A DNA stretch of 30,156 nucleotides from a virus (IMGVR_UViG_3300048587_000389:64001-94156); one strand, 5' to 3'; counted from the stretch's first letter, positions 4,477-24,942 are shown. Translations and numbers: made by a program. Notes: a model not told the origin generated them from the sequence alone.

Positions 4477-7083
4477 ATGGCTACACTATCTAATGTCAAC
4501 ATCACAATTACAGCTACTGACCAGACGGCCGGTGGCGTTAATTCTGCGCTTGGCAATGTTTCACGTTTAGGAAGCGGTTTTAGTAGCGTTGGTAGTATAG
4601 CAGCCGGAGTTTTCGGTGGCGTACTAGGAGCCAACGTGTTTTCTCGTGTCGTAAGCGGTATCGGAGGAGTAGTTTCTGGTGCAATGGGTCTTAACAGTAG
4701 AATGCAAGAATCAAGTCTTGTGGCTTCTGCTATGGTTAAGAGTATTGCTGCAACAGAACCTGAAGCTAATAGAGCATTCGGTGGAGCATCAAAAGCTGCT
4801 GAAGCATTCGCAAGAACAATGCGAGAAATAAGAGAGCGCGAAAGTGATGGTCTAGCAGATTATGCTGCTAAGATTGATGACATTAAAGCAAGAATTCAGG
4901 ATGCACAGCAAGATGCAAAGAATGCTGTATCTGAAAGAATTGCAAAAGAAAAGCAACAACTCCAGGATTTAGAATCTCAATACGCAGCAACATACAAGAG
5001 AATCAATGAGAATATCATTGACGAGAATCGTAATTTTGAAGAGCGCATGTATGACATGGCAAACTCAAAGCAAGATAAGCTTGATAACTTAGCTGAGCAA
5101 AGAGCTGATAAAGAAGAGGATATAGCTGGCAAGATTGCAGATCTTAATGAGGATCTTCTTGATGCTCAAACACAAGCAGAAGAAGATGCGATCCTTGCAA
5201 AAATTGCGCTTAGACAACAAGAGCTTACAGAGTTTATTGCAAAAAATGATGCAGAAAAAGCAAAGGTCATTGAAAGAGCTGATCACGAAATTGCATTTGC
5301 AACACAAACACACAACATCAAGATTCAAAGACTTCAGCAAGAGTTAACAGAAGAGCAAGCTGAATACAAAAAGCGTAGAGGCAGAATTGAAGAAGATGCT
5401 AAAGCTGATATTGAGAGAGCAAAGAAAACTTCTGATGAAAAAGTTGCTAACTTACAACAGCAATTAAAGAAAGAAGAAGAAAATCACAAGAGATTCTTAA
5501 GAGACATTCAACAGGCTTATGCAGATGCTGCCACAAAGATGGATTCAGCAGGAAGCTCAGGCGGTGGTGGAACTGTTAAGAGACTTCAATTTGACTTTGA
5601 GTTCAACAAAAATCTCAAAGGCATGGATGATTCTCAGATTAATGAGTTCTTAGATGGCATTCAGCAAAAGTATGTAGAGATCGGTGTCAAATCTCCATTC
5701 AACATCGGAGACATGCAAGAGTTTGGTAAGACAATGATCCGTTACACAGACGGTTCAGTCGATAACATGGAAACTCTGCTTAACATCGGTCAGATGCTTG
5801 CAACACTCGATCCAATGCAAGGTCTACACGGTGCTGCTCTTGGTTTGAACGAGTTGCTCTCAGGCGGTAACGCAAGAGCATTGGCAAGCCGTTTTGAGCT
5901 GCCACCTAACATTTTCGAAGGTCTAGACAAAGCTGCAAGCAATCCAACAGAGCTCTACGCTTTGATGGAAGAGCGTCTTGCTGGTGTCGGTTTGACTATG
6001 GAAGTTGTTGAGGCGCGAACTAAAGCTCTATCAGGTGCTTCAGATAACGTATCAGAAACATTTGCTATCTTGGCAGCTACACTAGCTAAGCCGTTCTATG
6101 ATATGCTTACCAATAGCTTAATTGGTGTCAACAAATTCTTAGCTGAGCACTACACTCAAATCAAAGGAGTAGCAGATCAGGTTGCTGGATTCATGGCCGG
6201 TGGAGGTCAACAGTTTATTGACTTCTTTATCTTCCTTGGCGAACAAATCGGTCTTTTCTGGGCAGAACACGGTGTCAAAATCATTCAATGGTTTACAGAC
6301 ATCTGGAACGGAATACAAATCAACGTTATTCCAGCTCTTGAGTTACTCAAAACAATTTGGACAACTGTACAAAAAGCTATTGAAGAAGTGATTCTTCCAA
6401 GTATGCAGCGTATCTTTGATCGTATTGCTATACTTTGGCAGAAGATTGCTCCTGAAGTAAAGGCTACTCTCGAATTCTTGAAGCAATGGTGGGATGAGCA
6501 TTCTAACCAGATCATGGGTATCATCAAGATAGCATGGGCAATCATCGAATTCGTAATCATGAGAGCAATTGAGGGTGTGGCTCTTGTTATAAGAGTCATC
6601 CTTGCTGCTATCAGAGGAGATTGGGAAGGCGCATGGAAGGCTATTAAAGATTACGTATCTGGTATGTGGGACGCTATCAAGAATCTTGCTAAAGGATTGT
6701 GGGATGGCATCGGTACATACTTCAAAGACGGTATCAACAGTATCATCGATAAAGTTAACGGATTCATCAACAGCATCAACAGACTTGGTGAGAAGAAGAT
6801 TAAGGTTGGGGATGTAGAAATTGGTGGCTTTAGCATTCCAAACATTCCAAGACTTGCTATGGGAGGTATCGTTACCAGCCCAACAATTGCTATGATCGGT
6901 GAAGCTGGCCCAGAAGCAGTTATTCCACTAAGCGGAAAGCAAAGAGGAATGGGTGCAGGCGGCGGTGTTAATGTTTATGTTACAGGCAACGAGATTATGG
7001 ACGATCAAACAGCAAGAAGATTAGCTGACATGATTGGAATTCAAGTTGCTGATAGTCTAAGATTACAAGGAAACTACTTATAA
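4477..7083 (+). CDS. tail tape measure protein
   Basis: 868 aa; N-terminal 'VNITITATD'; long helical/coiled-coil and periodic W/F regions; C-terminal IPRLAMGGIV..MIGEAGPEAVIPL motif. Confidence 0.92.
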   Translation: MATLSNVNITITATDQTAGGVNSALGNVSRLGSGFSSVGSIAAGVFGGVLGANVFSRVVSGIGGVVSGAMGLNSRMQESSLVASAMVKSIAATEPEANRAFGGASKAAEAFARTMREIRERESDGLADYAAKIDDIKARIQDAQQDAKNAVSERIAKEKQQLQDLESQYAATYKRINENIIDENRNFEERMYDMANSKQDKLDNLAEQRADKEEDIAGKIADLNEDLLDAQTQAEEDAILAKIALRQQELTEFIAKNDAEKAKVIERADHEIAFATQTHNIKIQRLQQELTEEQAEYKKRRGRIEEDAKADIERAKKTSDEKVANLQQQLKKEEENHKRFLRDIQQAYADAATKMDSAGSSGGGGTVKRLQFDFEFNKNLKGMDDSQINEFLDGIQQKYVEIGVKSPFNIGDMQEFGKTMIRYTDGSVDNMETLLNIGQMLATLDPMQGLHGAALGLNELLSGGNARALASRFELPPNIFEGLDKAASNPTELYALMEERLAGVGLTMEVVEARTKALSGASDNVSETFAILAATLAKPFYDMLTNSLIGVNKFLAEHYTQIKGVADQVAGFMAGGGQQFIDFFIFLGEQIGLFWAEHGVKIIQWFTDIWNGIQINVIPALELLKTIWTTVQKAIEEVILPSMQRIFDRIAILWQKIAPEVKATLEFLKQWWDEHSNQIMGIIKIAWAIIEFVIMRAIEGVALVIRVILAAIRGDWEGAWKAIKDYVSGMWDAIKNLAKGLWDGIGTYFKDGINSIIDKVNGFINSINRLGEKKIKVGDVEIGGFSIPNIPRLAMGGIVTSPTIAMIGEAGPEAVIPLSGKQRGMGAGGGVNVYVTGNEIMDDQTARRLADMIGIQVADSLRLQGNYL

Positions 7084-8573
7084 TGGCAAGCGTCAGAGTA
7101 ATGATCAGCGGAGTTGATAGAACAATCAACTATGTGAACAATTCACTTGGCATAACTGATGAGTTAGGCGCAAAGGTGAATACTTGTTCGTTTAAGACCT
7201 ATGCTGAGGATGTATCAGGATGGGTACCAGAGGCTGGAAATGAGCTTGAGATTTATGATGGTAGTGATAACATTATCTTTGGCGGCGTCATTACAAAAAT
7301 TGGTGAAAAGAGAGTAGGCTTAACACCAGGAACAACAAGCGAGTTGCTCACATATCAAGTTGATTGCCAAGACTGGACAAGACTTCTACAACGAAAGTTA
7401 GTTGTTGAAACATATCTCAATAAGACATGCAAAGAGATAATGCAGCTAATGATCAACAAGTACTTCCCGTTTGATGAGTTTACACTAGACAATTTTGCTG
7501 ATGGTCCTTTAGTAGCACAAATTGCATTCAACTACAAGACAGGTGATAAAGCGCTAGAAGAACTGGCTAAAGCAGTCGGTTATCAATGGTATGTAGACTA
7601 TAACAGAGATATTCACTTCTTTGCATCAGAAGATTCTGATGTTTTTACAACTATCACAGACGCAACAGACAACTGGAATGATTTAGAAATTACACCAGAC
7701 AGTACACAGCTTCGCAATCGTATTTTTGTGCGTGGAGGTATTTACTATTCTGATCCATTCTTACAGAGCAATGAGGCAGACGGCATTCAGGAAGCTTTTC
7801 TTTTGGCTTACACTCCATCATACGACGGATTCTCACTTACAATTGATGGTACTCCACGAACAGTAGGTATTGACAACGTTGATGAAGCAGCAGACTTTGA
7901 TTTCATGTTGAACAGAAAAGAGAAGACTCTTAAAATGGGTGACACTGAGTGGGCTACTGCAAATACTCCACTACCTGCAGGCACAATTGTTGCAGCAACA
8001 TACAACTATGAAATTCCTATTCTTATCACTCAGGAAGATTCTTCATCAATTACAGCACTTCGTGCAATTGAGGGTGGAGATGGAGTTTACGAATACTTGA
8101 TTAGTGATAAAAACATCACATCTATTTCAGCTGCTCGAGAAAGAGCATACGCTGAATTAAGAGACTATGCTAACCCGATTGTCAAAGGAAAGTACAGAAC
8201 ACATCAGGCAACAGGTGTTAAGGCTGGCAATCTCATTGCAATCAACTCAACAAGACGTGGTCTCAATGCAAACTACTTAATACAAACAGTAAGAATAAGT
8301 CAAATAACACAAGATCAATTACAGTATGACATCCAATTTTCTGGTCGTCTATACAGTCTTGTGGATATTCTTATTCGATTATTCAAAAATTCACAAGAGG
8401 TTGTTCTCGGATTAGACGAAGTTCTTGATGCATTCAACACTTTCTCAGATGCTTTGGACGGAATTGAAGACGGTACACCAACATTCGAAGAGAGTGCTCC
8501 GCCATTCAAGTGGAGCAATGATGCAGGTACAACACCAAACAAAATGCGTTGGAGTTTATTCGAATGGTCATAA
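7083..8573 (+). CDS. tail tip / baseplate hub-like minor tail protein
   Basis: Directly follows the tape measure gene. Hub-type segments ALEELAKAVGYQWYVDYNRDIHFF, LRNRIFVRGG and VKAGNLI. Confidence 0.65.
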   Translation: MASVRVMISGVDRTINYVNNSLGITDELGAKVNTCSFKTYAEDVSGWVPEAGNELEIYDGSDNIIFGGVITKIGEKRVGLTPGTTSELLTYQVDCQDWTRLLQRKLVVETYLNKTCKEIMQLMINKYFPFDEFTLDNFADGPLVAQIAFNYKTGDKALEELAKAVGYQWYVDYNRDIHFFASEDSDVFTTITDATDNWNDLEITPDSTQLRNRIFVRGGIYYSDPFLQSNEADGIQEAFLLAYTPSYDGFSLTIDGTPRTVGIDNVDEAADFDFMLNRKEKTLKMGDTEWATANTPLPAGTIVAATYNYEIPILITQEDSSSITALRAIEGGDGVYEYLISDKNITSISAARERAYAELRDYANPIVKGKYRTHQATGVKAGNLIAINSTRRGLNANYLIQTVRISQITQDQLQYDIQFSGRLYSLVDILIRLFKNSQEVVLGLDEVLDAFNTFSDALDGIEDGTPTFEESAPPFKWSNDAGTTPNKMRWSLFEWS

Positions 8574-8593
8574 AGACGAGGTATAATAGAACT

Positions 8594-9067
8594 ATGCAGA
8601 CTTTACATAAGAAAGACAGCAATACAGGCATAATAGGCGCAGTTAAATTGACTTTTCGTAACGTTAAAACGGGACAAGAAGATGTCATACATATTTTGAA
8701 TGTGTTTTGTGACCTTGGCAAAAACAGCATAGCTGAGAGACTTGCTTTCCAGCAGTCAGGTAAAGGAAAGATTACGTACTTTGCTACAGGTACGTCATCA
8801 GATGTTCCCAACAGATATGACCACATTCTTGGTCAAGAATTATTTCGTAAGCCAATTTCGGTGTTTGCGCATAATTCAAATGTAGCTACATTCACAACGT
8901 ATCTGTCAACTAGTGAATCAAACGGAACATTGACAGAAATTGGTCTCTTTGGTGATGACGCTTCAAGCACTCCAAACAGTGGTGAGCTATATGCACATAC
9001 AACTATCAACAAAGTAAAGACAGAAAATGACACACTCACAATTGAGTGGTCGATTACGGTAAACTAA
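8594..9067 (+). CDS. tail tip / fibre-attachment protein (tail-collar fibre N-terminal-like)
   Basis: YFATGT..ELFRKPI..NGTLTEIGLFG..LYAH..KTENDTLTIEWSITV pattern. Start at ATG 8594 is preferred because it avoids overlap with the upstream gene. Confidence 0.55.
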   Translation: MQTLHKKDSNTGIIGAVKLTFRNVKTGQEDVIHILNVFCDLGKNSIAERLAFQQSGKGKITYFATGTSSDVPNRYDHILGQELFRKPISVFAHNSNVATFTTYLSTSESNGTLTEIGLFGDDASSTPNSGELYAHTTINKVKTENDTLTIEWSITVN

Positions 9068-9068
9068 T

Positions 9069-9485
9069 ATGGCAAGTGTACGAACAGTCACAAACGTCGC
9101 TGCAGGTGATGATGGAACAGCAACTTGGGCAGACCAAGTGTATGATGACATCGGTAATTTGTTTGACGACAAAACAATGAATGCTGCCTCTGACGGAGCT
9201 ACAGTAACGTTCGACATGAACACATCATGTATTCATACAGTAACATTAGGAGGAAACAGAATTCTTGCTGTTACAAATGATATTGACAATAGATTGTTCA
9301 TGATTCGTTTAGTACAAGATGGTGCAGGCGGAAGAACAGTTACGTGGTGGTCAGGAATTAAGTGGCCGGGTGGAACTCCACCAGCGCTCTCTTCAGATCC
9401 AGGTGCAATTGATACATTTATTTTCTTGAGATCAGGATCAGGAGCGTACGACGGTTACTTCGGCGGCTTCCGTTTGACAACATAA
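9069..9485 (+). CDS. minor tail / fibre-associated protein
   Basis: TVTLGGNR..LVQDGAGGRTVTW..IKWPGGTPP..D.F motif, recognisable from phage fibre C-terminal domains. Confidence 0.55.
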   Translation: MASVRTVTNVAAGDDGTATWADQVYDDIGNLFDDKTMNAASDGATVTFDMNTSCIHTVTLGGNRILAVTNDIDNRLFMIRLVQDGAGGRTVTWWSGIKWPGGTPPALSSDPGAIDTFIFLRSGSGAYDGYFGGFRLTT

Positions 9486-10763: not shown

Positions 10764-11963
10764 ATGATTGGACAACGAGATACTAGATGGGCAAGTCAAT
10801 TGCTCGGACACGGAACAGGCACAATTGGTCAGTATGGTTGTGTCATCACTAGTGTCTGCGACGGATTAAACGAAGCAGGCTACACTGATGAGACTCCATC
10901 AACTGTGAACAACAAACTGAAAAACGTGCCGGGTGCTTTCATCGGAACAACAAAGAACCTTCTAGATTGGAACAAACTAAAAGAGGTATTTACAATTGAC
11001 TATAAAGGGAGTTATAATTACGATACAGTCCCAGCACCGATTGATAAACTTCGCGAATACCTTGACCAAGGTTTGGTCGTAATTTTAAGAGTTAGCGCAA
11101 AGAACATTGGCGGGACTGGAGATCACTTTGTCAGGGCTAAATCAGTTCAAGGCAGTACAGTAATTGTACGAGATCCTTGGTATGCTGAGGAAGCACCTAT
11201 CACAAAAAGATACACGAGTGGCAGCATTGATACTGCACAAGAAATAATTCTCGGTTTCAGAGTGATGAGTATTACTAAGAAGCAAGGAGAGAATATGCAA
11301 GAAGACGAAATGATTGTGAAGAAACAAGTATTCACAGACCTCGTCAACAATTCAAATCAACGCGACACTATCTTTGATGCGTTTAAAGTTGATAGAAAAA
11401 CAGGCACTGCACAACAGGTAGTTGAGATATACACAAAACTCAAAGAAGATAGAGATAATTTAGACAATGCGCTTAAAAAAGCACAAGAAGATGTAAAGGA
11501 ATGGAAAGGTCTTTATGAGACTGAGAAGATTACATCAGATGAGCGCAAAAAGAAATATGATTCATTCCTCGAATATGTATGCAACAAGCTCGGTTCTATT
11601 GTAGACGCCGAAGTTGTGAAAGGAAAAATCGATGAGTTGCTCCGTGTTGAAGGAGAACTCGATACAGCAAAGCGAGTCATGGAAGACATGAAGATTGCGC
11701 ATGCTAAAGAGAAGAAAGATCTTCAACAAGAGGTAGCAGATCTCACTGAGAAAGTAAGATTACAGAAACTTCAAATAGACAAGTTGGAAGTAGACCTCAA
11801 AACTTTGAGTGATAAGATAGATAATAGTAAAGAAGAAGAAGTCAAAAACAACAAGTTGCAGGATATCATAGCCGGTATTTTGCTCTTCTTCGAAAAACTA
11901 GGAGCAAATCGTAGAAATACACAGGCTAAGAAAGAGAGCGAAGATGAAAAGACTAAGTCCTGA
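10764..11963 (+). CDS. endolysin: peptidase C39-like N-terminal domain plus long coiled coil
   Basis: QRDTRW..TIGQYGCVITSV (catalytic Cys) and DHFV (His); heptad-rich charged C-terminal half; RBS aaggag; adjacent to a holin-like gene. Confidence 0.7.
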   Translation: MIGQRDTRWASQLLGHGTGTIGQYGCVITSVCDGLNEAGYTDETPSTVNNKLKNVPGAFIGTTKNLLDWNKLKEVFTIDYKGSYNYDTVPAPIDKLREYLDQGLVVILRVSAKNIGGTGDHFVRAKSVQGSTVIVRDPWYAEEAPITKRYTSGSIDTAQEIILGFRVMSITKKQGENMQEDEMIVKKQVFTDLVNNSNQRDTIFDAFKVDRKTGTAQQVVEIYTKLKEDRDNLDNALKKAQEDVKEWKGLYETEKITSDERKKKYDSFLEYVCNKLGSIVDAEVVKGKIDELLRVEGELDTAKRVMEDMKIAHAKEKKDLQQEVADLTEKVRLQKLQIDKLEVDLKTLSDKIDNSKEEEVKNNKLQDIIAGILLFFEKLGANRRNTQAKKESEDEKTKS

Positions 11964-15138: not shown

Positions 15139-16080
15139 ATGCTCAAAGAATATGAATACGACCAGATCGATAATCTTGACGTCCTTGGAAGTTATGGGAT
15201 TGATTATGTTGTAGTTGGTGGTGACAATGCAATGTTTTGTTGTCCGTTTCATGGAGAGTCAAATCCTTCATGCGGAATGAGTGTCAAAACTGGTCTTTGG
15301 GGCTGCTTTGCCTGCGGTGAGAAGGGAAACATTCTTCAATTCGTTGCAAAGATGGATGGTCTTGAGTTAGTAGAAGCTGAAGATAAGATGCGCAAGATGT
15401 GGATCCAGAAAGCTGATCCAGATTCAATCGAAGAAAAAGTCAGACAAATCTTAGCAAGAAAAGATAAACCAAACAAACCAAGCAATGAGCCAGTACCAGA
15501 GTGGATGCTTAGCCAGTATGTTAAAGATTACACATACATGTATACAAGGGGCTTCACTGAGGAGGTATGTAACCATTTTAACGTTGTTTTCGATCCTAAA
15601 ACAGGCTATCAGGGAATCCCAATCTACGATGAACGAGGAAGATTGATAGGCTTGAGTGGCAGAAACACTAAAAATGAGGAGCCGCGGTATATAGCTCTCA
15701 TCAGATACCAGAAAGCACAAGTTGTTTTCAACCTCGATAAAATTGATAAAACACAACCTGTCATTGTTGTTGAGGGAGAAATAAATTGTATGTCGATGTA
15801 TCAACACGGATACACAAATACAGTAGCAGTTTTAGGCGCATCAATAGCTAACGACCAGATCGAGATATTAAGAAATGCGCAAATAAAAGAGCTCATCATA
15901 TTCTTTGACACTGATGCAGCAGGCAATCACGGTACAATTAAACTTATTCAGAGCCTGTGGAACTACATGCAAATTAAAGTTGTTGATGATCATGAAGGAG
16001 ATCCAAACACAATGACTAAAGAAGAGGTGGACAGACTCATATCAAACGCTGGTCCATATCAAATTACGGAGATACTATGA
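15139..16080 (+). CDS. dnaG: DNA primase (CHC2 zinc finger plus TOPRIM)
   Basis: CPFHGESNPS..WGCFACG zinc finger; VEGE..; FFDTDAAG. Start at ATG 15139, after the helicase stop. Confidence 0.92.
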   Translation: MLKEYEYDQIDNLDVLGSYGIDYVVVGGDNAMFCCPFHGESNPSCGMSVKTGLWGCFACGEKGNILQFVAKMDGLELVEAEDKMRKMWIQKADPDSIEEKVRQILARKDKPNKPSNEPVPEWMLSQYVKDYTYMYTRGFTEEVCNHFNVVFDPKTGYQGIPIYDERGRLIGLSGRNTKNEEPRYIALIRYQKAQVVFNLDKIDKTQPVIVVEGEINCMSMYQHGYTNTVAVLGASIANDQIEILRNAQIKELIIFFDTDAAGNHGTIKLIQSLWNYMQIKVVDDHEGDPNTMTKEEVDRLISNAGPYQITEIL

Positions 16081-16859
16081 AAACAAAATACCCAATTTTC
16101 ATCCTTAGCAAGGGAAGAGCTGATAAGAATCTCGCAAAGACATTCGGTTTACTGATGCAAGAGCCAGATTATGAGTTCACAATTGTTGTTGAGCCGCAAG
16201 ATCAAGAAGCATACACAAAAATGTTCTTTCCAAACGGGCAAATAAGCATCTTTGTTTTGAAGCAAAATGACATGGGAATTCCTTTTGCAAGACAGAGTCT
16301 GCTCGAATACTGCAGATCAGTCGGTATAGAGAAATACTGGCAGCTAGATGACAACATGACAGCATTTATTGAGCGCAAAGAAGATAAGACTAAAGTGAAA
16401 GTATCTCCTCAATATGCTCTGTCTAAGGTAGAAGAAATAGCAGACTCATACAAAGATATAAAAGTAGCAGGTCTTAACTATGAAGTAACAGCTCATTGGG
16501 CAACTGAACCATATACATTCAACAAGGGAGTATACTGCGCTGTTTTGACTTCAACAGACACCGGCATTGATTATGATCTTGACATCGAAATAGAAGATCT
16601 CAATTTTGTCTTGAAGCATCTCAAGGCTGGTTACAACACTTTGCTCTCAAACAATTATGTTATGGTTAAGCCAAAGACAGGCGCTACTCCAGGCGGCAAC
16701 AGGATGGGATTGTACTCTTCAAAAGAACACTACGAAAATGCTATCAAAATGTTGCATGAGAAGCATCCAGACTGTACTCGCTTTCACACAAGAAAAATTG
16801 GATGGATCGGTATTCGGACTTCATGGAAGAACTTTAAGCGCCAAATAGAAAAATGCTGA
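16077..16859 (+). CDS. GT-A fold DNA glycosyltransferase (T-even beta-glucosyl-HMC-alpha-glucosyltransferase / TET-associated GT-like)
   Basis: IFILSKGRA, GIPFARQ, YWQLDDN, EDLNF..LKAGY and K..TPGG motifs recalled from this family. Confidence 0.72.
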   Translation: MKTKYPIFILSKGRADKNLAKTFGLLMQEPDYEFTIVVEPQDQEAYTKMFFPNGQISIFVLKQNDMGIPFARQSLLEYCRSVGIEKYWQLDDNMTAFIERKEDKTKVKVSPQYALSKVEEIADSYKDIKVAGLNYEVTAHWATEPYTFNKGVYCAVLTSTDTGIDYDLDIEIEDLNFVLKHLKAGYNTLLSNNYVMVKPKTGATPGGNRMGLYSSKEHYENAIKMLHEKHPDCTRFHTRKIGWIGIRTSWKNFKRQIEKC

Positions 16860-16879
16860 TTTATCTTTGAACAATTACG

Positions 16880-16888
16880 TGATATAAT
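16880..16888 (+). promoter_or_regulatory. candidate extended -10 promoter (TG-A-TATAAT)
   Basis: Perfect extended -10 in the intergenic gap upstream of 16908. Confidence 0.45.
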
Positions 16889-16907
16889 AAGACTATCCAA
16901 AGCAAAT

Positions 16908-17933
16908 ATGGAAGAAAATATTGATGTATTCCACACAAAGATTGTTGGTGTTTCGTTTGAACAACGCCAATATGTCATTCAGACAATCGCAAGATTGGAA
17001 GAGTTTGACAAATCAAGAGTAGAACTCTTGCTTGTTCGTGAGCCAAACAACCAATACGATCCTTATGCAATAGCAGTATATGCACGATATGAAGATTCCA
17101 ATTTTCTTACGGAAGTAACTAAGCAAGTCGGTTACATCAAAAAAGACCTAGCACAAAAATTGTCCGAAGATATAGATACAGATTCGCCATACGATTATGT
17201 CATTACAGATTATGACACCACCGGCGGTAAAGGAAAATCACGAGGACTAAACATACAAATAGTACGAAAGGAAAAGACCATGGCAAAATTGTCAGTCAAA
17301 GACTTACTTAAACAACGTGGCGGAGCACGAAAAGACTTCGCAGATGTGTTCATCAAACCATCAGTAGACTTACCTCAACTTACAGTGCGTTTCTTAAAAC
17401 CACTTGAGGAAGCATACATTCAAGGCACTCACTTCATCGATATGCCAGCAGGTTGGCCAAAGCGAAAAGAAGTATTCGAGTGTTTGAAATACCTCAACAT
17501 GGACGATGAGGCTGAATGTCCAGCAGATCAGTTGGATCAACCAGCAGTATACTTCGTCCTACCAGTTATTGACCGAGCAGATGGAAAAGTCAAGCTCTTC
17601 AAGGATACACGAGCAGTGTTCCGTAACTTTGAAACATTCTCTGGTGAACCAGCTTCAGATGCTGAAAAAGCATTTAAGATTGGTGACCTCACAAGAGCAG
17701 ACATTCAAATTATTCAGACCGGTGAGAGAAAGACTAGAAAAGTTATGTGTTTCCCACATGCAGCTTCTATTAGAGATCTCAACGCAGAAGAATTGAAGTT
17801 ACTCGAAACTGCACCAAATCCACGTGATTTCGTATCAGTGAAGACTAAAGACGAGATTCAAGCAATCGTAGATACAGTGATTGCGGCTAAGAACGGTCAA
17901 ACGATAACTGCAAATAGCGGTTTCCAAGACTAA
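16908..17933 (+). CDS. HIRAN domain fused to a probable phage ssDNA-binding protein (gp32-like)
   Basis: HIRAN motifs TKIVGVSF, LVREPNNQYDPYAIAV and VGYI. The C-terminal part begins MAKLSV..FIKP..TVRFLKP and follows an internal RBS-like aagga plus ATG 17280. Confidence 0.6.
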   Translation: MEENIDVFHTKIVGVSFEQRQYVIQTIARLEEFDKSRVELLLVREPNNQYDPYAIAVYARYEDSNFLTEVTKQVGYIKKDLAQKLSEDIDTDSPYDYVITDYDTTGGKGKSRGLNIQIVRKEKTMAKLSVKDLLKQRGGARKDFADVFIKPSVDLPQLTVRFLKPLEEAYIQGTHFIDMPAGWPKRKEVFECLKYLNMDDEAECPADQLDQPAVYFVLPVIDRADGKVKLFKDTRAVFRNFETFSGEPASDAEKAFKIGDLTRADIQIIQTGERKTRKVMCFPHAASIRDLNAEELKLLETAPNPRDFVSVKTKDEIQAIVDTVIAAKNGQTITANSGFQD

Positions 17934-17951
17934 ATTTGAATAAGGAGCAAT

Positions 17952-18326
17952 ATGGTTGAAGCCCAACAGATAGGTACGCTATACCAAAAACTGGCTAAAG
18001 AGCATGATGAATATCGTACTCTGTTGGGCGCAACCCTTCATGGAAATGAACCTGCGAGTCTAACAGAAAGAATTGACAGACTTGCATTCCATGTCATTGA
18101 AGAGATTATAGAGATGCGAAGAACTTATCCTCATAAGTTTTGGCGCAAATCAGAAGAAGATGTGAAAGTTGAAGAAATGCTTGAAGAAGCAGCAGACATC
18201 TTCTTAATGATGAGATCAATGATTGCAGAAGTATGCACAGTTGCAGGAATAAATGAACAAGATTTCTTACAATGTGTGTTAGACAAAATTACAAAGAATA
18301 AAGGGAGGATTCAAAATGGATACTAA
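17952..18326 (+). CDS. all-alpha NTP pyrophosphatase (dimeric dUTPase / dCTPase-like)
   Basis: EEIIE..HKFW..EEAADI acidic motifs of the MazG/dUTPase-2/T4 gp56 superfamily. Confidence 0.7.
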   Translation: MVEAQQIGTLYQKLAKEHDEYRTLLGATLHGNEPASLTERIDRLAFHVIEEIIEMRRTYPHKFWRKSEEDVKVEEMLEEAADIFLMMRSMIAEVCTVAGINEQDFLQCVLDKITKNKGRIQNGY

Positions 18327-19008
18327 CATTGGTTTATTCAATAGACAAGACGGTATTATTCGTCCAGACGAATTACCCAAGCATGTAATGATTGTCGGCG
18401 CTGGAGGAATTGGTTCATGGACAGCACTAGCATTTGCAAAAATGGGTGCACAAAAGATTACGATTGTAGACTTTGACGATATAGAAGACGTTAATGTAGC
18501 ACCACAATTCTACAGACTTTCTGACATTGGCAAGAAAAAAGGAGAAGTCCTTAAGCAACGCATCAATGAAGAAATGGGCAAAGAGATTTGTGAATACATT
18601 GATGGAAGATGGGAGAATCTCGCGGTAGGAATGCCGGAGTATATAAGTGCCACAGATGTTGAGGTACTCGTAATGGCAGTTGATTCGATGGACATTCGCA
18701 TCAAGATATTCAATGACATAAAGTATGTCGGATTGAGTCTCATTATTGATGGCCGCATGGCTAAAGAACAACTCGAAATATTCGCTGTCAAAATGACAGA
18801 CCAAGAAGCAGTTCAGTATTATCAAAAGTATCTCTATCCTTCTTCGGAAGTAGAAGAGATAGCATGTACAGAACGCGCAGTGGCTTACAATCAGTTTGTC
18901 ATTGCAGGTTTAATTGGAGCTCTACTTAAACACTACGCTAAGGGAGAGCTTGAGACCAAACACTTGTTGTTTGATTTAGTCTCATTTATATGCGTAGAGA
19001 AAAATTAA
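18316..19008 (+). CDS. ThiF/E1-like ubiquitin-like-protein activating enzyme
   Basis: FNRQ, GAGGIGS, DFDDIEDVN..Q, KK, AVDS and DGRM motifs; candidate catalytic Cys in EIACTER; RBS ggagg. Confidence 0.88.
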   Translation: MDTNIGLFNRQDGIIRPDELPKHVMIVGAGGIGSWTALAFAKMGAQKITIVDFDDIEDVNVAPQFYRLSDIGKKKGEVLKQRINEEMGKEICEYIDGRWENLAVGMPEYISATDVEVLVMAVDSMDIRIKIFNDIKYVGLSLIIDGRMAKEQLEIFAVKMTDQEAVQYYQKYLYPSSEVEEIACTERAVAYNQFVIAGLIGALLKHYAKGELETKHLLFDLVSFICVEKN

Positions 19009-19022
19009 TGAAAGGAGGACCT

Positions 19023-19286
19023 ATGCGTCCAGGTGCCCGTCGCCGCTCTCAAGAAGAAGAGAGTACACTACTCCGCGTATCAGTGGTTCGGTTCGGAGGC
19101 CGCCCAGTAACAGTCGAGTTCGATGAAGACGAAGAGCTCACAGTTGAAGAGGCAGTCGAACAAGCAGGATTTACTATCAAAGAGCGTGATCACGTAACTG
19201 TAAACGGTCAAGAGGCAGAAGGTGATGACATCGTCGAAGACGGTGATCAAATCGTTCTCTCCTCACGTATGCAGGGTGGTCGATAA
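19023..19286 (+). CDS. ubiquitin-like beta-grasp protein (ThiS/MoaD-like) ending in GG-R
   Basis: RBS aaggagg before ATG 19023. Beta-grasp pattern LRVSVVRFG..TVEEAVEQAG..VTVNG..VEDGDQIVL; C-terminus MQGGR. Confidence 0.85.
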   Translation: MRPGARRRSQEEESTLLRVSVVRFGGRPVTVEFDEDEELTVEEAVEQAGFTIKERDHVTVNGQEAEGDDIVEDGDQIVLSSRMQGGR

Positions 19287-19307
19287 ATCATAAATAGGAG
19301 GGAGATC

Positions 19308-20204
19308 ATGTCACAAAGCATTTTAAGAACTACGAGAATGATACGACAGATTTTAGAAGACAAAGACGTACTACCAAAACGTGCTTGGTCTCCCTCCTTT
19401 GATTTTCGTTTTACAGCAAGAGAAGACTTTGCCAAGAAGATTATCAACACAGTAATTGCGGATGTCAGTATCCTTGAACACAGACGGAATGAGATCGGAA
19501 CGAGTGTTAATTTGTTACAAGATGAAGTACGTAGAAAGCGCAAAGAGCTAGAAGATACTGAGAAAAGATTAGAGGCGGTAAAGTCTTCTTTTTCTGTAGA
19601 AGGAAAGCAACAAGAAATAGACAGAATCATGAGCAACTTGCTCATTCAGGGTTACGAATTCAGAGACCCAGCAGTGACAATCTTTACCACTGAGTTTTTG
19701 CGTAAGGAGAACATTATATTAGGAGTCTTCCGTATATGGATAGACTGGTCAAAGCGTAACGCAAGTGAAGCATTGGCAATCATAAATGTGTATAAGGGAG
19801 CAGGTCACAATGATCATCCATGCTTGAGTAATGGAAGATTATGTCTTGGAAACTTCAGCACTCCGCTTGAAGCAGCATACAAAGAAAAGAATCTTTTCGT
19901 TCTTTTAGAAACGGTTATGGCTTTTCTTGCGCAAGAGAATCCCCCATCAGGTTACTACCATTCATGGGCAGAATGGAATAGAAGCACAGCAAAAAGAGAT
20001 AAAAACTTTGACTTCTCATCTTATGGCATTAGACCAGGAGATGTAGATAGAAGAGTACAAGAAAGACTGATGCAACAAACATGGTATCAGCATGCTAACA
20101 TACAAGCCTATGAAGGTGCAGCAACAACTGCGCCACAACGAGTGACATCATTCACATACACAACATCGTACGGTTCGGATGATGATAGTAACGTACCATT
20201 CTAA
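19308..20204 (+). CDS. prokaryotic E2-like conjugating enzyme with N-terminal coiled coil
   Basis: UBC-like HP..G..CLG motif (DHPCLSNGRLCLGN); lies between Ubl and JAB; RBS aggagg. Confidence 0.68.
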   Translation: MSQSILRTTRMIRQILEDKDVLPKRAWSPSFDFRFTAREDFAKKIINTVIADVSILEHRRNEIGTSVNLLQDEVRRKRKELEDTEKRLEAVKSSFSVEGKQQEIDRIMSNLLIQGYEFRDPAVTIFTTEFLRKENIILGVFRIWIDWSKRNASEALAIINVYKGAGHNDHPCLSNGRLCLGNFSTPLEAAYKEKNLFVLLETVMAFLAQENPPSGYYHSWAEWNRSTAKRDKNFDFSSYGIRPGDVDRRVQERLMQQTWYQHANIQAYEGAATTAPQRVTSFTYTTSYGSDDDSNVPF

Positions 20205-20213
20205 GGAGGACAC

Positions 20214-20939
20214 ATGAAAGTAATTCTTTCGCCATTAGCACATCTGAAAATGAAATACTACATAGACAACATAGGCTATGAGATTTCAGGAGTAGGTCTT
20301 GTTGAGAAACGACCAGGTGGAATTCTTTATGTGCCAGATCTCTTCTTAATCAAGCAAGAAGTAACAGGAGTAGAGACAACTTTAGATGAAAAATCACTCC
20401 ACGAATTCATGCTTGAGAAAATGCAAGACGAAAACTTTCCAGTAGAGAATCTTAAGTTGTGGTGGCACTCACATGTCAACATGGCAGTCTTCTGGTCCGG
20501 TGTAGATGTGGCCACAAGAAATACTTTAGACACAGATCAAGGTGAAGAAAACTGGTGGCTTTCTATTGTTGGCAACAAAAAGGGCGAGACAAAAGCTTGT
20601 CTTGATGTGTTCCAACCACACAGACTAATTATGGACGATATTCCAGTTGAAGTCGGTGGCATGTTTGAACTAGAAGATGCTATCAAGCTTGAAATTGAAG
20701 AAAAAGTCACTGTGAAGTATACACAGCCAGCAGACAAAACACCATCTATACCCCCATACAGCAATTCACAAGATTTTCACGGATTTAAGGGACAATCTCG
20801 AGACATTGATTTTGGTGATGAAGATTATGACATGCCACTTCATGACGTTGGAGATGCGGGTTTTAGAAGAACACAAAATGGTATATACTTACCTAAGAAG
20901 AATAAAAAGCTGAAAAAGCGCAACAATAGAGTTTTATAA
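20214..20939 (+). CDS. JAB/MPN+ metallopeptidase (Ubl-processing / deconjugating)
   Basis: Catalytic Glu in YEISG and WWHSHVNMAVFWSGVD (H-x-H-x7-S-x2-D); RBS aaggagg. Confidence 0.88.
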   Translation: MKVILSPLAHLKMKYYIDNIGYEISGVGLVEKRPGGILYVPDLFLIKQEVTGVETTLDEKSLHEFMLEKMQDENFPVENLKLWWHSHVNMAVFWSGVDVATRNTLDTDQGEENWWLSIVGNKKGETKACLDVFQPHRLIMDDIPVEVGGMFELEDAIKLEIEEKVTVKYTQPADKTPSIPPYSNSQDFHGFKGQSRDIDFGDEDYDMPLHDVGDAGFRRTQNGIYLPKKNKKLKKRNNRVL

Positions 20940-20948
20940 GGAGCATTC

Positions 20949-21875
20949 ATGAAAATACTCATAACAGGTGGAGCAGGTTTTTTAGGATCACTATTGGCAG
21001 AAGAACTTGCTGTCATGGACCACGATATTGTTGTGGTTGACAACTTAATGTATGGCGCAGAGGAGAACGTTCCAAAGATGTCGAATGTCATTTTCGTCAA
21101 GAAAGACATCAGACAACAGGACACATGGAACTATCTCAAAATGTATGGCAACTTTGATATTGTCTATCATTTTGCAGCACCATCATCAATCACACTCTTC
21201 AAACAAGATTTAGCAGGATGTTTAGATGACACAATCACTACATTTATTCATGCACTTAATTTCTGTGCAAAAACAGGAGCTCGTTTAGTGTATCCCTCAA
21301 CAGGAAGCTTATATGCTGGTGTTGATGGAGAGCAGACAGAAAATGCTGAAATTGATCTAAGCAGACTTAACGAATACGCCAAAGGAAAATGGGCACTAGA
21401 AAATATACAACTTGCTTATCAAGATGTAGTTGAAATTCTCGGTCTCAGAATCTTTGCAACATTTGGTGAAAGAGAAGAGCACAAAGGTGATTTTGCAAGT
21501 GTAGTATACATGTTTGCAAAGCAAATTCTTAATGGTGAGAAGCCTGTCATCTGGGGTGACGGTAAACAAAAAAGAGATTTCATCTATCAGGACGATGTGA
21601 TAAGCACGATCATTGATCTTTCAATGAGAGAGCACGAAGGTATCTACAATATCGGATCGGGCACGAATGTCTCATTTAATGATGTGATCAAAGCAATCAG
21701 TGATGTGTTGGAGAAAGAAGTAGAAGTAGAATATGTTGACAAACCACAGAACTACCTCGAAACTACAAAAGCAGACACTACACTTTTGCGTTATGCATTT
21801 GATAGTCATGATCTTGAATGGCAGGCGGGTAGTTTCAAAGATGGAGTTGCAAAAATGCTGGAGGCAATGAAATGA
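20949..21875 (+). CDS. NAD-dependent NDP-sugar epimerase/dehydratase (extended SDR, RfaD/HldD-like motifs)
   Basis: TGGAGFLGS, YAKGK (YxxxK), REEHKGDFASV, GDGKQKRDFIY and GIYNIGSG motifs. Confidence 0.88.
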   Translation: MKILITGGAGFLGSLLAEELAVMDHDIVVVDNLMYGAEENVPKMSNVIFVKKDIRQQDTWNYLKMYGNFDIVYHFAAPSSITLFKQDLAGCLDDTITTFIHALNFCAKTGARLVYPSTGSLYAGVDGEQTENAEIDLSRLNEYAKGKWALENIQLAYQDVVEILGLRIFATFGEREEHKGDFASVVYMFAKQILNGEKPVIWGDGKQKRDFIYQDDVISTIIDLSMREHEGIYNIGSGTNVSFNDVIKAISDVLEKEVEVEYVDKPQNYLETTKADTTLLRYAFDSHDLEWQAGSFKDGVAKMLEAMK

Positions 21876-22399
21876 GTAAACAACAAGTCATAATTATTGA
21901 GGGTATAGACATGGTCGGCAAAACGTCGATCATTAGAGAGCTCTCAAAAACGTTGAACATCCCAGCTTACAAAGAAATTCGTGAAGAAAAGTGGTATGAT
22001 CATAACATAGACTTGCTCTATGCAGAAGAGGCTCGCATCCAGATGCTTGAGCAAATTGGCTTTAGCATTATCTTTGACAGGTCTTATCCGAGTGAATGGG
22101 CTTATGCTCATGCTTATGAGCGCAAAACAATTCCTGAAAGAATTTTAGAGCTCGACAAAAGGTATGCTACATTAGGCACCAAGATAATCTACCTATACAA
22201 GTCACCAGAGTACTTTCAGCAAGATAAGACAAATCTCATAGATTTTAGTAAGTATTCGAGAATTGATGAGCGGTATAGAGAGTTCTTGCTCTTCAAAACT
22301 AAGTGTGACTACATGTTCTTAGATACATCTGATCAGAACATACACTCACAGGTAGAATCTATCTGTGACTTTCTTAATATCATAAAGGAGGAAGAATGA
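21872..22399 (+). CDS. deoxynucleoside monophosphate kinase (thymidylate kinase-like)
   Basis: IIEGIDMVGKTS P-loop and FDRS motif. Confidence 0.82.
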   Translation: MSKQQVIIIEGIDMVGKTSIIRELSKTLNIPAYKEIREEKWYDHNIDLLYAEEARIQMLEQIGFSIIFDRSYPSEWAYAHAYERKTIPERILELDKRYATLGTKIIYLYKSPEYFQQDKTNLIDFSKYSRIDERYREFLLFKTKCDYMFLDTSDQNIHSQVESICDFLNIIKEEE

Positions 22400-23361
22400 C
22401 AATAGGAATTTACAAACCATTCAAACCACTTTACTTTGTTGATGACACTTTAGATAATGCGGCATGGTCGTATGAGATCGTGCACATGTCTCAAATCTTA
22501 GCAGATCAAGGACATAGTGTCTACATTTTAAGTGAGAATGATTTGAATGATGACGAATCTGATTACTTCCAAGACAAAAACATCTTGGATGCATCAAAAA
22601 TGATATGGGATGACGAACAGTTTGTGTTTGACCGCATCATTATCTGGTGTGGCAGCTTTCAACTAGACAAGATTGGTGATGAAATTATCCCATTTTTCAA
22701 AGCACACACTCCACGACTAGATTTCTTTTTGACAGACAAAAAACTTATTCCTGAGACGATCGAGTATCTCTACATGTTTGACAACATCTATGTCCAGAGC
22801 ACTCTTCCGATCTACACACAAGATGATAAGTTTGGCGCATTAGGAGAGCTACTCCCTTACAAACATGAATGGACTAGAACAGTAGATGAAGCAATAGCAA
22901 GCAAGACGACTGAATTTTACTTTGGCGGCACAGAAAGAGATCGTTTAGACGACTTCTTAGAATATGTGTGGAGACCTGGACATCTAGTAACTACAAAGAG
23001 CCAGTTCCTTGGCATTGAGAATCGTATTGATCGCAACAAGTTCAAAGAAACTCTTGATACTGCAAAATACAGTGTAGTCATCACAGATGTGGTAAATAAT
23101 GAAGTTCACTTCATCTCACCTCGTCCTTACGAGCTCTACATGCATGACATTGTAGCTTTCTTTGATTACAAGTACGATGCTGATGAACACTTCTGCAGTA
23201 AAGATGATTGGCGAAGAGTACACAACTACAAAGAGTTGCGCACAAAGATGAATTATCTCAATGAAAATCCAGAATACTACAAGCAAATTCTTGAACATCA
23301 ACGAGCGCAGATTACACAAGATCTCATTGATGGCTCTTATGTGTACTCGATGACTAAATAG
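22396..23361 (+). CDS. GT-B fold DNA glycosyltransferase, T4 beta-glucosyltransferase-like
   Basis: Segments FLTDKKL, FYFGGTER and FISPRPYE..DIVAFFDYKYD..VHNYKEL..MNYL parallel remembered T4 BGT segments (LFTDIRL, IYGGSFR, FITLRVWE..IDEEFD..VNNRAEL..VNEL). Confidence 0.72.
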   Translation: MTIGIYKPFKPLYFVDDTLDNAAWSYEIVHMSQILADQGHSVYILSENDLNDDESDYFQDKNILDASKMIWDDEQFVFDRIIIWCGSFQLDKIGDEIIPFFKAHTPRLDFFLTDKKLIPETIEYLYMFDNIYVQSTLPIYTQDDKFGALGELLPYKHEWTRTVDEAIASKTTEFYFGGTERDRLDDFLEYVWRPGHLVTTKSQFLGIENRIDRNKFKETLDTAKYSVVITDVVNNEVHFISPRPYELYMHDIVAFFDYKYDADEHFCSKDDWRRVHNYKELRTKMNYLNENPEYYKQILEHQRAQITQDLIDGSYVYSMTK

Positions 23362-23372
23362 GATTGTACAAA

Positions 23373-23945
23373 ATGACACTTCAGGAATATAATAAACTCA
23401 TATTCAAAGAGTTAAAAGATAAATACGGGTACAATGTCGTAGGGTTCTTCAACGGCAACAAGATTTTTATTGTTGGCCAGAATCCAGGCAACCCAATGAC
23501 TGAAGAGCAGAAGGAAGAAACAAACTGGTTGATGTCTTTAGAAGATTTCGATGAAGTAGAAAGACACACTTCTGAGACATACAAGAGCACTTTATTCGGT
23601 AACTATGTGGATAAAGTAATAGGCGGTAGATGGGATATAGTATCCTTTAGCAACATAGTTAAAGTTCCTACAGCGGCCAACTCAGAGCCTACGAAAGAAC
23701 TCATAGATGAACAGTTTCCGATGCTTCTTAAACAAATAGAGTATGTTCAGCCTAGACTGATTCTCTTGTTTGGCAAGTTTGCAGGAAAAATGTTTGGAAT
23801 CAATAACTTTTACGGAGCAGGCATCTACAAAGGGAGTCACACTCTCTTATTGCCACACCCTTCATGGGTAATGCGCCAAGGAAAAGCTAAAGAAAAAGAA
23901 GAAATAGAAGCGGCCCAAAAGGTGCTTACTTATATAGAAGTATAG
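23373..23945 (+). CDS. uracil-DNA glycosylase superfamily protein (family-4-like motifs)
   Basis: IVGQNPG, SNIVK, LLFGKFA and LPHPS motifs; ATG 23373 with agga RBS. Confidence 0.75.
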   Translation: MTLQEYNKLIFKELKDKYGYNVVGFFNGNKIFIVGQNPGNPMTEEQKEETNWLMSLEDFDEVERHTSETYKSTLFGNYVDKVIGGRWDIVSFSNIVKVPTAANSEPTKELIDEQFPMLLKQIEYVQPRLILLFGKFAGKMFGINNFYGAGIYKGSHTLLLPHPSWVMRQGKAKEKEEIEAAQKVLTYIEV

Positions 23946-23952
23946 GAGGATT

Positions 23953-24942
23953 ATGTTGCATACGTATAGTGGTGTGAATCTTCAGGACATGTTCAAAACA
24001 GCTTTGTACGAACTTATGACTGAAGGAATGGTTGCATCTCCAAGAGGGATGGAAACAAAAGAGCTTACTCCAGTAGTTTTTGAAGTGAAGAACATTCTCT
24101 CTAGAATGATCTCATTAAAGAGCCGCAAAATGAATCCCTTCTACGGTATCATTGAAACTCTTTGGTACATGAATGGAGACAATGATGTTAAGCGCCTCAC
24201 TCCATACAACAAAGCTATGGCTAACTTCTCAGATGACGGCAATATCTTAGCTGGAGCATACGGAGAGCGATTAGTTGGCAAGAACAGAGAACTAGACAAA
24301 TCACAATTTGGTTTAGTGTACGACAAACTCACAAAAGATCCATCAAGTAGACAAGCAATTGCTATTATTTGGGATCCTTGGAGAGATTATGCCCCAACAA
24401 AAGATGTTCCATGTACAGTAGGATTCATGTTTACGATTCGTAATGAGAAATTGAACATGACTACAATAATGCGTTCCAACGATATTGTTCTCGGCACAAC
24501 TTATGATGTCTTTGCATTCACTATCTTTCAAGAGTTCTTGGCTCGTAAATTAGGTGTGGGACTCGGTACTTATACTCACTTAGCTAATTCATTCCACATT
24601 TATTCAAACCACTATGACAAAGCATGGGAAATGATCAAGGACAACACTCCTGCAGTACTCATGCCTGAGATGCCAGATACAAGTTGGAAAACATTCAATG
24701 AGCTTTATGACTTTGAGCGAAGACTCATCACTGACGAAATTGATTTGACTACAGCTCAGCAAGAAATAGAATTCATTGTTGATGCTCATGATGGCAATCA
24801 GTATTGGGCAGACTGGGCAAGAATGCTTGCGCTCCACAAAGCTATTAAGCTTGGTGATACAGAAAAAGTTGGCACATTCTACTCTGCACTACACAGTTCA
24901 TATCAAGCTATGACCCTTCCATGGGTAGAGAAACTCATCTAA
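23953..24942 (+). CDS. thymidylate-synthase-fold pyrimidine hydroxymethylase, probably dCMP hydroxymethylase
   Basis: YGERL, SSRQA, catalytic PC, RSNDIVLGTTYD (Asp at the substrate-specificity position) and SFHIY motifs. Confidence 0.78.
   Translation: MLHTYSGVNLQDMFKTALYELMTEGMVASPRGMETKELTPVVFEVKNILSRMISLKSRKMNPFYGIIETLWYMNGDNDVKRLTPYNKAMANFSDDGNILAGAYGERLVGKNRELDKSQFGLVYDKLTKDPSSRQAIAIIWDPWRDYAPTKDVPCTVGFMFTIRNEKLNMTTIMRSNDIVLGTTYDVFAFTIFQEFLARKLGVGLGTYTHLANSFHIYSNHYDKAWEMIKDNTPAVLMPEMPDTSWKTFNELYDFERRLITDEIDLTTAQQEIEFIVDAHDGNQYWADWARMLALHKAIKLGDTEKVGTFYSALHSSYQAMTLPWVEKLI

Follow-up and report, generated by a model that had tools for sequence, protein, structure and literature searches.

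The stretch analysed here, called the window, comprises 30,156 nucleotides (nt) of a viral sequence (IMGVR_UViG_3300048587_000389:64001-94156) and ends a 94,156-bp IMG/VR record, of which it is the final 30 kb; the record has direct terminal repeats and is rated 100% complete. It contains a cassette of four adjacent genes encoding a ThiF-type E1, a ubiquitin-like protein (Ubl), an E2-like protein and a JAB/JAMM metallopeptidase, which together resemble the parts of a protein-conjugation pathway (Table 1). A first-pass annotation had proposed that a phage carries the full E1-Ubl-E2-JAB set within its replication region, and this proposal held for all four domain identities and for the phage origin. 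The four plus-strand open reading frames (ORFs) were confirmed where the annotation had placed them. They are located in a co-directional block of replication and nucleotide-metabolism genes, and the catalytic motifs of all four proteins do not vary across four orthologous phage loci whose proteins are 41-54% identical, which is far beyond chance.

Table 1. Features of the cassette and its surroundings, in positions of the window (aa, amino acids)
Feature	Position	Strand	Description
E1, minimal ThiF/MoeB-type adenylyltransferase	18316..19008	+	230 aa; 11-nt overlap with the upstream MazG-like gene
NVAPQ segment of E1	18493..18507	+	replaces N-x-x-R-Q
Codon of E1 Cys184	18865..18867	+	sole invariant Cys of E1 in the five-phage alignment
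Longest ORF of the Ubl	18990..19286	+	98 aa
Ubl pro-form	19023..19286	+	87 aa; basic N-terminal extension, one beta-grasp domain, C-terminus QGG-R
Gly-Gly-Arg codons of the Ubl	19275..19283	+	invariant Gly-Gly, then the removable residue
E2-like protein	19308..20204	+	298 aa; helix/coiled coil at about residues 29-94, ubiquitin-conjugating (UBC)-fold core at 95-250, low-complexity tail
UBC-fold core of the E2-like protein	19590..20057	+	AlphaFold2 (AF2) with 134-sequence alignment: predicted local distance difference test (pLDDT) 89.1, predicted template modelling score 0.84
Codon of E2-like Cys179	19842..19844	+	family-invariant Cys; predicted thioester site
E2-like C-terminus	20178..20201	+	DDDSNVPF
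JAMM/MPN+ metallopeptidase	20214..20939	+	241 aa; conserved basic C-terminal tail
JAMM zinc-site motif	20466..20507	+	HSHVNMAVFWSGVD (HxHx7Sx2D); invariant in five phages
JAMM basic C-terminal tail	20880..20936	+	GIYLPKKNKKLKKRNNR
Tape measure protein	4477..7083		among tail genes upstream of the cassette
HIRAN protein	16908..17933	+	fusion protein, two genes upstream of the cassette
Genes resembling a DNA hypermodification toolkit	16077..16859, 17952..24942	+	interrupted by the cassette
Nearby genes, first set			DnaB, primase, TET-associated glycosyltransferase (TAGT), HIRAN protein, MazG-like pyrophosphohydrolase, NAD epimerase
Nearby genes, second set			P-loop kinase, glycosyltransferase, UDG-superfamily protein, ThyA homologue, Pol III alpha, Cas4-like exonuclease, RecA/UvsX

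The concern that the cassette might be host DNA misassembled into a viral contig could be set aside, because the genome is complete with terminal repeats, has four syntenic relatives (41-54% identity) and shows a uniform GC content across the window (0.37-0.44). The four related phage contigs (50-94 kb) share the order DnaB-primase-HIRAN-MazG-like-ThiF-Ubl-E2-like-JAMM-kinase, which continues to ThyA and Pol III alpha. Identity to the nearest related phage is 54% for the E1, 41% for the Ubl, 42% for the E2-like protein and 53% for the JAMM. Neither an integrase nor a resolvase was found in the complete genome, which therefore gives no sign of a temperate lifestyle, and the host of the cassette is apparently a virulent 94-kb freshwater phage. 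Its DNA was found in small shares in drinking-water and aquaculture metagenomes in a look-up of sequencing runs. There is no cultured relative to draw on, since a megablast of positions 16000-24000 and a tblastn of the E2-like protein against 50,697 GenBank phage records gave no match, and the JAMM gave a single marginal one (25% identity).

The E1 matches the Pfam ThiF family with an E-value of 1e-21 (77.7 bits, cut-off 28.1) through a single ThiF domain at residues 23-203, and its gene has a strong ribosome-binding site (RBS), GGGAGGA. Its motifs are FNRQ at residues 8-11, GAGGIGS at 28-34, AVDS at 121-124 and Cys184 within IACTERAV; GAGGIGS and the Cys in ACT, which the first-pass annotation had described as intact, are present and invariant in the five phages. 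The segments FxRQ, GAGGIGSW, MAVD and CTERAVAYNQF are invariant in the five-phage alignment, from which CxxC zinc sites are absent. The protein has the elements of a Rossmann-type ATP site, namely GxGxxG, an Arg finger and a Mg-binding Asp, with one deviation: the N-x-x-R-Q of ThiF, MoeB and Uba enzymes is replaced by NVAPQ, of which the Pro is invariant in the five phages. Cys184 is a candidate thioester site. The best NCBIfam matches were the ThiF and MoeB models, all below their equivalog cut-offs (63.8 bits against 159 for ThiF, 39 against 266 for MoeB), and PADLOC matched the E1 only to the E1 half of CBASS E1-E2 models (best 9.6e-13, profile positions ~310-470).

The Ubl scored above the cut-off for Pfam Ub-Mut7C (25.5 bits, cut-off 23), with ThiS sub-threshold, and its Gly-Gly is invariant, in agreement with the first-pass description of a beta-grasp Ubl ending in GG-R. 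The residues after the Gly-Gly are R, NK, SK, K or KK in the five phages and RA in locus L006. Because one or two extra residues always follow this invariant Gly-Gly, we regard the product as a pro-form. The longest ORF starts at an ATG at 18990 that has no Shine-Dalgarno sequence. A second ATG, at 19023, lies 4 nt after the RBS AAAGGAGGA, and its 87-aa product compares with 83-89 aa in the orthologues; on these three grounds 19023 is most likely the start. The earlier claim of a strong RBS on each gene stands for the E1, E2-like and JAMM genes, and for the Ubl only with the start at 19023, not 18990.

Profile comparisons matched the Ubl to PF1061 (0.0017), SAMP2 (0.005) and TtuB (0.015), in alignments that stop at the Gly-Gly, and as judged from its sequence the protein belongs to the ThiS/MoaD/SAMP branch of beta-grasp modifiers. 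This branch includes proteins with a dual role as sulfur carrier and protein modifier. The cassette might instead be a sulfur-carrier pathway, in which the E1 would convert the JAMM-trimmed ThiS/MoaD-type Ubl to a C-terminal thiocarboxylate, as in CysO/Mec+ or QbsE/QbsD; perhaps the sulfur would pass to a small molecule or nucleotide, possibly in connection with the DNA-modification genes nearby. JAMM-trimmed sulfur carriers are established, and the nearest solved relatives of the Ubl are ThiS/MoaD-like proteins, TtuB and SAMPs. The CysO/Mec+, QbsE/QbsD, TtuB/TtuC and SAMPs/UbaA systems share with the cassette a minimal E1, a ThiS/MoaD-like Gly-Gly protein and a JAMM that exposes or releases the Gly-Gly. 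The E1 is moreover a minimal single-domain enzyme with ThiF and MoeB as its best NCBIfam matches, and the cassette has a MazG-like gene on one side and a kinase/glycosyltransferase/ThyA block on the other. We nevertheless consider a sulfur-carrier pathway unlikely. The JAMM-trimmed systems have no E2 and depend on rhodanese or desulfurase partners, whereas the complete phage genome encodes neither a rhodanese nor a cysteine desulfurase (Aminotran_5). The E1 has no rhodanese domain and misses every ThiF/MoeB equivalog cut-off by a wide margin, and the cassette holds no sulfur-acceptor enzyme.

The relation between E1 and Ubl was examined by complex prediction with two E1 copies and Ubl residues 25-97, together with controls. 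The complex score was 0.88, compared with 0.01 for the best control; the mark used for this score is attained in 51 of 78 solved complexes, as against 2 of 108 mismatched pairs. Agreement between runs extended to at least 97% of contacts, and the pLDDT of the Ubl as partner was 91. In the model the tail at residues 91-97 contacts E1 residues 28-33 (the nucleotide loop), 121-125 (the Mg-Asp segment) and 174-188 (around Cys184), so that the Gly-Gly tail is predicted to lie in the adenylation site. The predicted pose corresponds to that of adenylation in ThiF-ThiS and MoeB-MoaD. Because it may be reproduced from those solved complexes, we take the model as evidence of likeness rather than of binding.

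The first-pass annotation depended on a UBC fold in the product of the third gene, an alpha/beta fold made up of an N-terminal helix, an antiparallel sheet and C-terminal helices, and the AF2 model of the core and two independent structure searches agree on that fold. A single-sequence AF2 model of the full protein, from which the helix at residues 29-94 was taken, was unusable (pLDDT 45.7); the core was modelled with the family alignment (Table 1). All 50 top matches of the core in a Foldseek search of the PDB were UBC E2 enzymes, with probabilities up to 0.99 and template modelling (TM) scores of ~0.5. VIA-align, which is independent of Foldseek, placed UBE2S first, with a Z-score of 7.8 in the range below 8 that the program rates 'middling' (126 aa, root-mean-square deviation 3.6 Å); E2s dominated its list, and the E2 domain of CBASS Cap2 matched at Z 5.6. 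Against AFDB clusters the core matched prokaryotic proteins, including ones that carry the annotation 'UBC core' or 'RING-type', with an E-value of 7.6e-7 and a TM score of 0.69. Since a single VIA-align Z-score is only middling, we place the weight on the agreement of two methods and on the homogeneous list of E2s, and conclude from the modelled structure that the E2-like protein adopts the UBC fold and that its conserved Cys is a candidate for catalysis. The sequence HPCLSNGRLCLGN occupies residues 170-182, in which Cys179 sits nine residues past His170-Pro171, the spacing of the canonical E2 motif HPN...C. The ranges that VIA-align aligned with UBE2S, which are ranges and not residues, are consistent with the catalytic Cys position for Cys179. 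The spacing and these ranges together would put Cys179 at the E2 active-site position.

A word-indexed search returned one relative of the E2-like protein. An exhaustive hidden Markov model (HMM) search with a profile built from two core sequences, run against 1.84 billion representatives, returned 144 proteins at E <= 1e-3, of which many reach 400-800 aa. The signature of the family is D-[HS]-P-x-[IV]-x4-5-C-x-G-[ND]. Only three columns, G139, C179 and G181 (window numbering), are invariant in the 134-sequence domain alignment, and identity is otherwise ~20%. The HP..G..CLG motif of the first-pass annotation survives in part: its second Cys, C179, and G181 are invariant in the 134 members, but Ser often takes the place of the His, and the first Gly is unconserved. 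Ten diverse full-length members gave no Pfam or PHROG match, and all are labelled hypothetical in their sources. Pfam UQ_con was matched by 2 of the 134 family members (best 1.2e-5), and the two most E2-like members, P0168 and P0208, gave chance matches only against the PDB. The protein belongs to an undescribed E2-like sequence family, for which Pfam, PHROG, NCBIfam and PADLOC hold no model.

A different reading of this family is that the E2-like protein is a non-catalytic scaffold of the UBC/RWD/UEV type that merely processes or binds the Ubl, or that the E1 adenylates another substrate. Non-catalytic domains of the RWD, UEV and FANCL types do occur among the VIA-align matches, and the window protein itself matched no curated E2 model in Pfam, PHROG, PADLOC or NCBIfam. 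Furthermore, Ubl and JAB genes without E1 or E2 are known from phage tail modules (PMC1779556), and a role limited to Ubl processing or binding was proposed for the lambda tail assembly proteins I and K. We regard a scaffold as very improbable here. The top-ranked structural matches are all catalytic E2s, the E1 retains its ATP-site residues with the Ubl Gly-Gly tail predicted in that site, and a Cys followed two residues on by a Gly, both invariant in 134 sequences at ~20% identity, would be hard to explain. A catalytic E2 remains our preferred reading of the protein. We also observed that its C-terminus, DDDSNVPF (NDDVPF in the L003 orthologue), resembles the acidic DDDIPF tip by which the bacterial single-stranded-DNA-binding protein (SSB) recruits its partners. 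The resemblance may be due to chance, because the tail is missing from L002, L004 and L005.

The fourth gene encodes a JAMM peptidase. Its motif matches exactly, with E23 in YEISG followed by H85-S-H87-x7-S95-x2-D98, and is invariant in the five phages, so the JAB catalytic motif given in the first-pass annotation (E; HSH..S..D) could be retained as it stood. The protein had no match in Pfam. A phmmer search of the PDB found CSN5 (2.2e-6), RPN11 (3e-4) and an archaeal Rpn11-like protein (0.007), and the catalytic residues coincide in these alignments; HSHVNMAVFWSGVD aligns with the CSN5 motif HSHPGYGCWLSGID. We found 76 homologues. The basic C-terminal tail follows a variable linker and is conserved in four of the five phages.

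To compare the cassette across phages, 18 IMG/VR loci were fetched with the five-phage JAMM alignment and scored by custom HMMs. The E1 is next to the JAMM in all 18, the E2-like gene is adjacent in 16, and a small ORF with Gly-Gly at its end or at most two residues from it is present in eight. The last count leaves out L022 and L023, whose ORFs end in KGA and gave weak, non-adjacent matches, and is a lower bound, as a five-sequence HMM can miss small divergent Ubls. Several loci are kin: L010-L012 are identical in scores and termini, L022 equals L023, L024 nearly equals L026, and L009 is the contig of L002. After collapse ~14 distinct lineages remain, with the E1 in 14, the E2-like gene in 13 and a Gly-Gly-ended Ubl in 6. 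The gene orders seen were Ubl-E2-JAMM-E1, E2-E1-JAMM and E1-Ubl-E2-JAMM. The order of the window recurs in the four related contigs and is shuffled across the ~14 lineages; this variety argues that the genes are linked by function and not through inherited synteny. ThiF, ThiS-like or JAB genes also adjoin distant members of the E2-like family. The linkage of an invariant-Cys UBC-fold protein in 13 of ~14 lineages counts further against a sulfur carrier, as such a protein has no role in known sulfur relays.

The surroundings of the cassette differ between phages. L027 has a D5-type primase-helicase, an SNF2 helicase and Pol A beside it, L028 has small early ORFs, and L029 has a Pnkp/Hen1-type RNA-repair gene. 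In a BLAST comparison with the other viral loci, homologues of the window's neighbour genes were confined to its own clade. The cassette is thus a portable module, often in early or replication regions. Because other phages' cassettes have wholly different neighbours, the link to DNA-modification genes is lineage-specific, which also argues against a sulfur-carrier role. Mobile elements often carry defence genes, and on another proposal the same chemistry could serve as a Bil-like exclusion weapon that tags the structural proteins of competing phages and plays no part in the phage's own infection cycle. The variable extensions of the E2-like proteins would suit a diversifying arms race of this kind. 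We think such a weapon quite improbable. A complete genome that encodes no integrase or resolvase leaves no lysogen to protect, and PADLOC matched nothing beyond the generic E1. The cassette occupies the same slot in the core replication block of five diverged phages, unlike accessory moron loci, and in L027 it adjoins replication genes of a different type.

The first-pass annotation had compared the cassette with Bil and CBASS. Type I/II Bil (BilABCD) likewise divides four functions among as many separate genes: its Ubl ends in a C-terminal Gly, its E2 has the UBC fold, and a JAB/JAMM and an E1 complete the set (PMC11601596). The phage, too, has separate Ubl, E2-like and JAB genes beside its E1. 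The Bil E1, however, is defined by tandem adenylation domains and a Cys domain (PMC11601596), whereas the phage E1 has 230 aa and a single ThiF domain. The Bil Ubls are ISG15-like, in contrast to the one beta-grasp domain of the ThiS/SAMP branch in the phage. Bil is located in bacterial defence loci, and the phage cassette lies among the replication genes of a virulent-looking phage and uses an E2-like protein of another family. The conjugation chemistry is presumably the same. Type II CBASS, with Cap2 and Cap3, resembles the cassette in its E1 adenylation domain, in the structural match of the Cap2 E2 and in its JAB partner. Cap2, however, is an E2-E1 fusion that conjugates the CD-NTase without a free Ubl, whereas the phage has a separate E1, a separate E2-like protein and a free Ubl; beyond the E1 half, PADLOC matched no CBASS component among the four cassette proteins. 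The comparison is therefore sound as an analogy of function and fails as membership, since the E1 is neither a multi-domain BilD nor a Cap2 fusion.

The E1/E2/RING operon of Caldiarchaeum subterraneum also combines a pro-Ubl and a separate E2 with an Rpn11/CSN5-like JAMM, which must trim the residues after the Gly-Gly before E1 activation and also deconjugates (PMC5654768). The pro-peptide is nine residues long in Caldiarchaeum and one or two in the phages. The archaeal E1 is eukaryote-like, with an active and an inactive Rossmann domain, a Cys domain and a UBL domain, in contrast to the single-domain phage enzyme. The Caldiarchaeum operon also has a small RING E3, and the phage cassette has none: positions 18316-20939 leave no room for such a gene, and the ten neighbour proteins, the part of the genome that was searched, gave no RING or zinc-finger Pfam match.

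A further likeness is to the bacterial operons described by Iyer, Burroughs and Aravind in 2006, which link genes for a minimal ThiF-type E1, an E2-like protein, a JAB and a Ub-like protein (PMC1779556). The phage cassette resembles these neighbourhoods, including those of plasmid PRTRC systems, as a predicted conjugation system with a minimal ThiF-type E1. Membership of PRTRC was considered and rejected: PRTRC_ThiF scored 42 bits against a cut-off of 144.75, and the E2-like protein, JAMM and Ubl had no match among the TIGR03734-03742 models. Given the E1 architecture and the missed family cut-offs, we do not assign the cassette to Bil, CBASS or PRTRC. For phages, the 2006 survey reported only Ubl and JAB genes (TAPI/TAPK) in tail-assembly modules, without E1 or E2 (PMC1779556), and a preprint on Asgard viruses reported E1-like genes alone (10.1101/2021.07.29.454249). 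The first-pass annotation knew of no characterised phage case, and the literature searched, which did not cover most subscription journals, likewise gave no description of a complete phage-encoded cassette.

Several features around the cassette deserve description. The HIRAN protein is a fusion: a HIRAN domain (Pfam 2.5e-8) forms the N-terminal part, and the C-terminal two-thirds resemble the single-stranded-DNA-binding fold of T4 gp32 (ESM Atlas, TM score 0.69, residues 127-331). It is kept in all five related phages and is probably a phage SSB with a 3'-end-binding HIRAN module, reminiscent by analogy of the HIRAN-containing Rad5/HLTF ubiquitin ligases at eukaryotic replication forks. The genes on both sides of the cassette resemble a DNA hypermodification toolkit of the hydroxymethyl-pyrimidine glycosylation type. 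It comprises the TAGT, a MazG-like dNTP pyrophosphohydrolase, an NAD epimerase, a P-loop (d)NMP kinase, a second glycosyltransferase, the UDG-superfamily protein and the ThyA homologue. The TAGT and epimerase genes are absent from L002-L004. A functional tie between cassette and hypermodification genes was dropped on the strength of the BLAST comparison described above. Scans for promoters (32 found, 33.6 expected) and terminators (8 found, 8.5 expected) were at chance level, and we therefore claim no operon boundaries.

Some of the other phages contain additional elements. In L002, a related 90-kb phage, a 58-aa ORF (10896-11072, plus strand) with a zinc-ribbon-like CxxC ... CxCC pattern separates the E2-like gene from the JAMM gene. 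The window has no equivalent of this ORF, whose product could be an adaptor of accessory function or an E3-like factor. A distant 55-kb phage contig (P0036) carries ThiF, three small ORFs, a 554-aa protein and a JAMM, next to a TROVE (Ro60-like) gene and ribonucleotide reductase. The E2-like family member P0090 is also 554 aa long and may be the same protein. The 120-kb contig L007 has two adjacent E2-like family members of 684 and 347 aa (6001-9112, plus strand) and a ThiF gene ~2 kb downstream, and no JAMM was detected in the 14 kb fetched.

The analysis showed the four domain identities, the UBC fold, the conserved catalytic residues, gene linkage across unrelated phages and, with controls, a model of the E1 with the Ubl. 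We estimate a probability of about 70% that the cassette is a self-contained phage-encoded ubiquitin-like protein-conjugation module, and from the domains and models we infer its chemical steps, the direction of transfer, a dual role for the JAMM and the kind of targets. The JAMM would first trim the 87-aa pro-Ubl, removing the residue after the C-terminal Gly-Gly. A dimer of the ThiF-type E1 would then bind the Ubl and adenylate its terminal glycine with ATP, and the activated Ubl would pass as a thioester, possibly via Cys184 of the E1, to Cys179 of the E2-like protein. This protein would transfer the Ubl to a lysine of the target, and the JAMM would also reverse the modification. Target choice would probably be made by the E2-like extensions, a coiled coil here and 200-500 extra residues in other phages. 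As the genes lie in the replication block of a phage without an integrase, the system would most likely act during lytic infection, on host or phage proteins. It might tag host defence proteins, act as a decoy, interfere with other phages or regulate the phage's own proteins.

A number of points weigh against a conjugation module. Sulfur carriers are among the nearest relatives of the Ubl, and sulfur transfer is the classical task of minimal ThiF-type E1s. The E1 has no separate Cys domain and is missing the canonical ATP-contacting Arg of N-x-x-R-Q, and its pose with the Ubl may have been carried over from the solved complexes named above. The Gly-Gly-ended Ubl ORF was detected in only 8 of 18 loci (6 of ~14 lineages). 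For the E2-like protein, the want of a curated match is compounded by weak Foldseek E-values against the PDB (~0.02), by the middling Z-score of UBE2S and by a family profile that matched no PDB sequence, and the correspondence of Cys179 to the E2 catalytic Cys draws on motif spacing and aligned ranges. Neither a separate E3 nor a target protein was found, and the sequencing-run look-up found no RNA runs that contain this DNA.

On this reading the chemistry would be a known one, carried by a phage and built on a minimal E1 and an E2 family not described before. Bacterial Ubl conjugation was recently established as an anti-phage mechanism in Bil and type II CBASS, and to our knowledge anti-phage defence is the sole role yet characterised for such machinery in bacteria. 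We tentatively suggest, as a possibility on which we would not yet bet, that many unrelated phage lineages run their own Ubl modification in lytic infection, with a new E2 family whose extensions serve as built-in E3s, and so rewire host proteins, for example those of immunity, or phage replication proteins, among them the HIRAN fusion in this lineage. If this is true, phages and bacteria would both wield Ubl conjugation as a weapon in their conflict. If phages carry complete conserved cassettes, composed of a minimal E1, a new E2 family and a CSN5/Rpn11-like JAMM, virus-directed post-translational tagging would extend beyond eukaryotic viruses, and a search would open for its targets among host defence proteins, replisome parts and competing phages. 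The compact parts (230, 87, ~155 for the E2-like core and 241 aa) would make an unusually small system for the handover of a Ubl from a single-domain E1 to an E2, a step that bears on the evolution of eukaryotic ubiquitination.

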